Shown: one piece after another, positions 11,619 through 12,276 of the stretch | Layout: each line of letters begins with the position of its first letter | Numbering within the stretch: position 1 is the stretch's first letter | Origin: Rotaria socialis | Taxonomy: Eukaryota | Length of the DNA: 64,000 nucleotides | Assembly (NCBI GenBank): GCA_905331295.1 | Contig: CAJNYD010000020.1 | Location: forward strand, 1-64,000 | Direction: 5' to 3' | Notes under the pieces: generated by a model | Databases searched by the model: none | What the model was told of the DNA's origin: nothing | The model's input: the letters and a program-made list of their open reading frames with translations, nothing else | Made by a program: the position numbers and the translations under genes

Positions 11619-12276
11619 TTATTTTAATTTAGCTTGAAATCCTAAGCTAGTGATTTTTTCGATTATAGCTTGTTCCGTCGTTTTGTCACTACCGAATTCA
11701 ACGGATGCGTTTTTGTCATTTAATGATACCTGAAAAATAAATAAACAAAAATAGATCAGATAATAAGAAAAAGTTTAACAACAAAATAAATATCTGATAT
11801 TTTTAAATAAATTATTCAGTATTTAGCTACCTTGCAAGAGCTTCTATACAAAGATTTTATAGATGCATGGCTTAGGATGATTCACTGGCTCTAGAAGATT
11901 TAAGTGGAACTATTCTTTTAGGAGAACACAATCGTGCTTTCTTGAAAATAATATACTTCAAAAATACTCTCGGTAAAACCTTGCACAACCTTTAAACGAC
12001 CAAGTTTCATTTTGTTTTACAAATCTTCTCGTCGTAGTCAATTTAGGAAATCTCCATCGGCCTTTAAAATCATTCTCTGAACTTCAGCAAATTCTTTCAC
12101 ATTAGAGGGAAAAAATGTGTTGCTGCTGAGCTTTTGCGTGCTATTCTATGTGTAAGTCTTCTTACCACAACTGTTTTAACGCCGTCCATCTTGCCAACAT
12201 TACGTTCAATATTTTTAACACATGATTGACATGTCATACCATCGACATTAAATACTTTTTTTGTAATTGAACTCAT
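11619..12276 (-). CDS. Stand-alone HMA-domain copper chaperone (CopZ/ATP7-MBD-like), 73 aa, 2 exons (12276-12166 and 11729-11619)
   Basis: Joined across a GTAAG...TTTTCAG phase-0 intron (12165-11730): MSSITKKVFNVDGMTCQSCVKNIERNVGKMDGVKTVVVSLNDKNASVEFGSDKTTEQAIIEKITSLGFQAKLK*. Complete HMA pattern with GMTCxxC and a terminal GF. Each exon is 111 nt, below the ORF-track cut-off. Confidence 0.92.

Follow-up and report, generated by a model that had tools for sequence, protein, structure and literature searches.

A stand-alone HMA-domain gene beside CTR and ATP7 in bdelloid rotifers, probably derived from the first metal-binding domain of ATP7

Introduction

In animals, copper delivery to ATP7 is taken to go via ATOX1, and the hallmarks of ATOX1 and Atx1 are a CxGC site and a KTGK lysine. 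In plants, the soluble chaperone PCH1 comes from the N-terminal metal-binding domain (MBD) of a P1B Cu-ATPase. According to a review, PCH1 is made from PAA1 by splicing or by gene duplication (PMC4709454), and through duplication of PAA1 it is a separate gene in some plants. In E. coli, the first MBD of the CopA pump is freed as a soluble copper-binding protein (PMC5829832), as we propose here for a rotifer pump. Human NML45, a splice variant of ATP7A (PMC2634674), is, like the rotifer protein as we read it, short and ATP7-derived, with one copper site and a proposed chaperone role.

Here we describe a copper gene cluster in a window of 64,000 nt from the bdelloid rotifer Rotaria socialis (assembly GCA_905331295.1, contig CAJNYD010000020.1, positions 1 to 64,000). 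The window contains a stand-alone gene for an HMA domain, of which no description was found in open-access papers and preprints. We read its product as a free domain derived from MBD1 of ATP7 and likely a soluble Cu(I) carrier from the copper importer CTR to ATP7, and we give this reading a probability of about 0.6.

Results

The HMA gene is expressed as a spliced, leader-capped mRNA

The features of the cluster are as follows.

4095..8712, plus strand: ATP7-type Cu(I) P1B-ATPase without MBD1, with a Cys-less domain, a GMHCNSC domain, MBD5, MBD6 and the pump core
9563..10378, plus strand: CTR-family copper importer, 195 aa in five exons, with the spliced leader at 9525 and transcribed towards the HMA gene; its Pfam Ctr match is weak (19 bits, below the cut-off, in a partial frame)
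11085..11315, minus strand: ORF2, 76 aa, own leader-capped transcript from about 11326 to 10963, C-terminal YDNxGYG
11326..11729, minus strand: HMA gene exon 2, with 36 codons and the stop codon (11621-11619), then a 3' UTR that reaches poly(A) sites at 11472 and 11326/11327
11730..12165, minus strand: HMA gene intron, 436 nt, GT..AG, phase 0, directly before VSL, where ATP7 MBD1 has its intron
12166..12294, minus strand: HMA gene exon 1, spliced-leader acceptor at 12294, ATG at 12276, 37 codons, GMTCQSC metal site

The original prediction was of a two-exon gene that the ORF track had missed. The coding sequence was found on the minus strand, where 12276-12166 (37 codons) is joined to 11729-11619 (36 codons and TAA), and the three peptides quoted in the prediction were all present. 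The product is a protein of 73 aa with the metal site CQSC and a C-terminus that reads LGFQAKLK. The gene had also been called hidden, which is not so in the databases, where an identical R. socialis protein sits at NCBI as an 'unnamed protein product'.

The 436-nt splice joint was present in the RNA contigs of all five runs, which came from three studies. The 5' end of the mRNA at 12294 matched the Rotifera spliced leader in the four runs checked, with the consensus taken from PMC3795323, and poly(A) ends were found at 11326/11327, 11335 and 11472. None of the five runs is recorded as RNA; their RNA nature is argued from the splice joints, the leader and the poly(A). Leader, joint and poly(A) together show that the two exons are spliced to each other and form a complete gene, which removes two doubts that the prediction itself had raised, namely that the exons are never spliced together or belong within a longer gene. 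The HMA gene is thus a free-standing gene with a spliced, leader-capped and polyadenylated mRNA, and the protein itself is known at the RNA level. Contig depth in run X1 was 1218 for the HMA gene and 29 for CTR, and in X2 and X3 it was 6-8 and 4, values that are unsuitable for ranking expression. Parts of the intron (11730-12165) were covered unspliced by contigs of runs X2, X4 and X5.

The 73-aa protein matched PF00403 (HMA) with 64.7 bits against a cut-off of 24.8. Its structure model (pLDDT 92.9) was ferredoxin-like, with four strands and two helices, and the nearest structures were ATP7A/B domains, MerP and CopZ, the TM scores to ATP7A domains being 0.90-0.93.

The gene is conserved in bdelloids

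Full-length orthologues of 71-73 aa were found in R. magnacalcarata, R. sordida, R. sp. Silwood1, Silwood2 and Adineta steineri; the A. ricciae model is longer and probably mispredicted. The two-exon gene was also present in 9 of 30 metagenome loci, with an intron of 51-63 nt at the identical site. The length of 436 nt in R. socialis suggests an insertion into the intron. The dN/dS ratio was 0.08-0.23 in all 10 pairs, and the gene is under purifying selection across bdelloids. The MxCxxC motif occurred in 9/9 aligned database proteins and in 9/9 loci. Degenerate copies without one or both cysteines of the metal site were seen in R. sordida (P0022) and at L030:1969-2040. P0012 in the cluster listing, which by its sequence is presumably an Hsp90-family protein, was disregarded. 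Outside bdelloids, no stand-alone copy was seen among eight candidates near its length; the profile search was swamped by multi-domain ATP7, and the gene may occur more widely.

The gene is linked to CTR and to an ATP7 without MBD1

The first domain of the ATP7 in the window is Cys-less and corresponds to the one next after MBD1 in the other bdelloid paralogue. Residues 1 to about 167 of this ATP7 matched R. socialis models at 100%; its 5' end lies beyond the reach of the RNA contigs. No HMA trace was found between the upstream gene and the ATP7 start (143-4094). In the wider clade, 60 bdelloid ATP7 models were examined, and none of the 47 that reach the GMHC domain had a CxxC domain ahead of it. 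By their N-termini, bdelloid ATP7 paralogues fall into at least three classes: one keeps MBD1 intact, one has an additional Cys-less domain and one has neither of the two (P0172-P0199; L005-L010; L024-L026). The extra Cys-less domain showed 14-29% identity to all candidate domains and may be a decayed MBD1. In the pump-core tree, the bdelloid paralogue that keeps MBD1 branched first and the rest grouped together with support of 98/98, the L005 sequence being approximate.

In seven named lineages of Rotaria and Adineta, the accessions of the HMA gene and of the MBD1-less ATP7 differed by 5-43, and the two genes were assigned longest contigs of equal size (476,469; 218,682; 6,114,868; 2,713,763; 29,004 and 8,148; 651,811; 220,702). 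For P0006, P0008 and one Silwood2 accession there was no such ATP7 partner among the fetched sequences. On this evidence, which bears on linkage indirectly, the pairing appears to be kept in seven bdelloid lineages. CTR lay downstream of the HMA gene in 7 of 9 loci and a leucine-rich-repeat gene lay upstream in 8 of 9, the misses being contigs too short there. In L002-L004 the HMA gene persists beside CTR, and no ATP7 is there. The gene that has its last exon at 1-142 of our window is present twice at L002:11718-13776, where the two copies directly follow CTR, with no ATP7 between.

The N-terminus of the CTR protein (9563-10378) is His-rich, and the protein carries an MxxxM motif. The His-Cys-His tail in which human CTR1 ends is lacking in this CTR, which may bear on the handing on of copper. 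The HMA gene and the leucine-rich-repeat gene stand head to head about 400 nt apart (12276-12686), an arrangement kept in 8 of the 9 orthologous loci, and they possibly share a promoter.

The helical face would suit a copper donor

An intact MTCxxC site is expected to bind Cu(I), as is known for this family. The site was intact in all full-length copies of the HMA protein, which by this analogy very probably binds Cu(I). Donation to ATP7, rather than pure buffering, seems the somewhat more probable use of that copper.

The combined charge of the helix-1 and helix-2 face was +1 to +2 in 10/10 HMA proteins and -1 to -4 in 7/7 animal MBD1, while that of the attached bdelloid MBD1 was 0 or -1. Helix 1 of the HMA proteins carried +2 in 10/10, and the mean charge of the helix-2 patch was -2.9 in animal MBD1 and -0.1 in HMA proteins. 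The GMHC domain of ATP7 was acidic (-3 to -7). Positive helices of ATOX1 are required for its docking on MBDs (PMC5039574). These sequence-derived charges suggest that an acceptor domain has been remodelled into a donor. The argument is modest, because the helical face of bdelloid MBD5 and MBD6 is equally positive (+1 to +2) and because the overall charge of the stand-alone domain is -3 to 0 and not basic.

The main rival to a CTR-to-ATP7 carrier is a copper buffer or trans-acting regulator. The HMA protein would then still be derived from MBD1, but it would act as a sink that stores Cu(I) from ATOX1 or glutathione, or it would re-associate with the MBD1-less pump as a regulatory domain. Its MBD-like net charge of -3 to 0 agrees with such a role, as does the retention of the gene without an adjacent ATP7 in L002-L004, and the E. 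coli CopA fragment is reported to bind copper and to raise tolerance (PMC5829832). MBD1-4 are described as regulatory and dispensable for transport (PMC8896786), a point that also makes the loss of MBD1 from the pump tolerable. However, the neutral helix-2 patch and the positive helix 1 fit a donor better, and we regard a buffer or regulator as rather unlikely.

Gene structure points to MBD1 of ATP7 as the likely source

The intron of the HMA gene, at KTVV|VSL, lies at the codon and phase of the MBD1 intron of human ATP7A. In three mammalian ATP7A proteins residues 40|41 read HHIK|VSL, within MBD1, and exon 3 of human ATP7A begins at c.121 (PMC3240829), a start given likewise by PMC4562349. 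The comparison with ATP7 MBD introns, which had been put forward with the original prediction, therefore returned the same codon and phase as in human ATP7A MBD1. Among bdelloid ATP7 loci, L024-L026 have an intact MBD1 with an intron at IK|VSL; the intron was missing in L005-L010, which are near-identical copies. MBD1 of L021 lacked it as well, so the intron is not universal. In three loci of other animals (L027-L029) a GT donor was present at the MBD1 intron site and the second exon was not recovered; for L027, the splice proposed automatically proved spurious and was left out. As a control, the ATP7 of this window had 3/3 tested human intron positions in MBD5/6, none of which is the intron site of the HMA gene. 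The chance of an intron at exactly this site was 1/218 over uniform positions and 1/16 among positions before GT.

By pairwise score to the HMA protein, the best 14 of 152 domains were eukaryotic, and two of them were bdelloid MBD1. The signature CQSC+VSL+GF occurred in 108/622 eukaryotic and 0/144 prokaryotic domains. The elements VSL and terminal G-F had been offered as marks of both ATP7 MBDs and bacterial CopZ, a view the counts do not bear out for prokaryotic domains: VSL was found in 7/144 prokaryotic versus 382/622 eukaryotic domains, and terminal G-F in 29/144 versus 504/622. A eukaryotic profile scored better than a prokaryotic one for 10/10 stand-alone sequences, with small margins of +1.4 to +9.5 bits that lie at the lower end of the distribution for held-out eukaryotic domains. 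The best prokaryotic domain scored 71 bits, near the best animal domains at 81. Identity of the HMA protein to MBD1 of the paralogue was 39-47%, which is between the values of the neighbouring domains (33% and 58%). The nearest prokaryotic match at the metal site was a Woesearchaeota HMA domain (L031:1501-1698) with GMTCQSCVKNI, probably by convergence.

The domain trees rest on 64 columns. The LG+G4 tree contained 76 of 162 domains and the mixture-model tree 42 of those 76; neither the Cys-less domains nor L026 (partial), P0020 or P0022 entered any tree. Both comparison sets were chosen by similarity to the query, and the prokaryotic set came from 803 sampled genomes together with plasmid and pattern hits. 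In the FastTree analysis, the stand-alone clade was nested among animal N-terminal MBDs with weak support. In the LG+G4 tree the clade separated the prokaryotic rows, all on one side, from the eukaryotic rows, all on the other; in the mixture-model tree it grouped with eight domains from prokaryotes and a single eukaryotic one (86/99). The stand-alone clade and bdelloid MBD1 were recovered as sisters in no tree. The AU tests rejected neither an MBD1 sister (p 0.48 and 0.40) nor a CopZ sister (p 0.15 and 0.38). The basic helical face may explain the pull toward prokaryotic domains.

The original prediction had offered two origins, an ATP7 MBD or a horizontally acquired copZ. The first gained support, since the intron position, the MBD1-less neighbouring ATP7 and the motif signature all favour ATP7 MBD1; the second fell behind, though the trees are compatible with it. 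In a copZ-type origin, a prokaryotic copZ or copA-type domain would have been transferred anciently, acquired an intron and come to lie next to CTR and ATP7, and its product would still be a chaperone. Besides the LG+G4 and mixture-model placements and the AU tests, such a transfer could draw on the three Atlas clusters among the matches listed, which are mostly bacterial HMA/CopZ (0.89-0.90), on the general domain model TIGR00003, which the 73-aa protein passed (70.5 versus 62), and on the many foreign genes of bdelloids (PMC6053224). However, it requires the gain of an intron exactly at the MBD1 site and a separate loss of MBD1 from the linked ATP7. The 73-aa protein scored 63 bits with the NCBIfam CopZ models, below their cut-offs of 91 and 95, its three-part signature was absent from all 144 prokaryotic domains, and the choice of prokaryotic rows by query similarity biases the trees toward that grouping. 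We consider this transfer improbable. With gene structure weighed above the 64-column trees, the HMA gene is most likely derived from ATP7 MBD1.

The original prediction also held that the protein is not ATOX1, and the profile comparison agreed with it. Against single-domain structures, the HMA-gene profile scored 64 bits with ATP7A MBD1, 59-60 with CopZ, 25 with CCS and 20 with ATOX1; ATOX1 was not in the trees. By its sequence, the 73-aa protein is not ATOX1. A strongly diverged ATOX1 orthologue that had converged on MBD-like sequence is scarcely credible: the length of 73 aa against 68 aa, the fold and the basic face of the helices would fit the role, but ATOX1 scored 20 bits where ATP7A MBD1 scored 64, CxGC and KTGK are absent (the site is CQSC) and the intron coincides with that of ATP7 MBD1. 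An ATOX1-like motif was absent from the 17 bdelloid loci scanned, a result that has a bearing on these loci and not genome-wide.

A small gene, ORF2, adjoins the HMA gene

At site 11326 in run X1, the HMA mRNA ended in poly(A) and an ORF2 contig had its leader-capped start (one contig in one run; X3 ends there too). This spacer-less layout of the HMA gene and ORF2 recalls the SL1-type operons of nematodes. Eight stand-alone loci extend far enough downstream for comparison; seven of them had a counterpart of 67-73 aa ending in YDNxGYG, and L014 had none. The dN/dS ratio of ORF2 was 0.14-0.83 in 15/15 pairs, and a comparable ORF arose in 43 of 2000 shuffles. There were no matches in Pfam, Atlas or PDB, and a single Rfam hit was at chance level. 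We discarded the view of ORF2 as a fragment lost from ATP7, as MBD1 runs directly into the Cys-less domain in L005 and L024 and as, in a set of 302 fetched proteins, the strict form of the motif occurred in 19 ATP7B-type N-termini and ORF2 only. The YDNxGYG of ORF2 resembles the apical sorting signal of ATP7B, which is FAFDNVGYE (PMC6769697). Such motifs, however, are widespread as sorting signals. A role for ORF2 in the copper system, suggested by this analogy, would be speculative.

Discussion

We propose that MBD1 of an ancestral bdelloid ATP7 became a free single-domain gene, either through fission or through a partial duplication with subsequent loss. These two routes are not told apart, because the extra Cys-less N-terminal domain in one paralogue class may be a decayed MBD1. 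One inversion of the segment with the ATP7 body and CTR would restore MBD1 directly upstream of the ATP7 body on the same strand; this fits the present order and does not prove it, since one event can explain most two-gene arrangements. The HMA protein would then act as a soluble Cu(I) carrier, which takes copper from the neighbouring CTR to the neighbouring MBD1-less ATP7. A wider scheme seems doubtful. In it, bdelloids would have replaced ATOX1 by a freed ATP7 MBD1 with a re-evolved donor surface, kept in a CTR-chaperone-ATP7 cluster. Its gene would be transcribed together with that of a micro-protein, as a trans-spliced operon without spacer, and the micro-protein would tune pump trafficking via an ATP7B-like YDNxGY.

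If the carrier reading is true, the HMA protein would be the animal counterpart of PCH1 and the CopA fragment, and bacteria, plants and animals would have come to the same solution. With MBD1 still part of the pump in one paralogue and separate next to another, bdelloids would offer a natural pair for asking what makes an acceptor a donor. The copper gene cluster and the operon-like micro-ORF are direct experimental targets.

The HMA protein has the GMTCxSC, VSL and GF signature, the fold and the intron site in common with MBD1 of ATP7A and ATP7B; that domain is attached to the pump and has an acidic helix-2 patch, whereas the HMA protein is free and has lost the patch. It is like ATOX1/Atx1 and CopZ in size, fold and likely role, but its similarity to ATOX1 is low (20 bits) and it stays under the curated CopZ cut-offs. 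NML45 is a theoretical 11.2-kDa product of an intact gene, whereas the rotifer protein comes from an independent conserved gene under purifying selection. In E. coli, one copA gene gives two products by programmed frameshifting; in the rotifer, the domain has a separate spliced gene. PCH1 is a PAA1-derived chloroplast protein, and its copper transfer has been shown biochemically; the rotifer gene is from an animal, encodes no targeting peptide, would be derived from ATP7 and is linked to an MBD1-less pump, to which transfer is inferred. The principle of a pump-derived chaperone is thus already known from plants and bacteria, and a separate, conserved animal gene of such origin is new in the literature searched.
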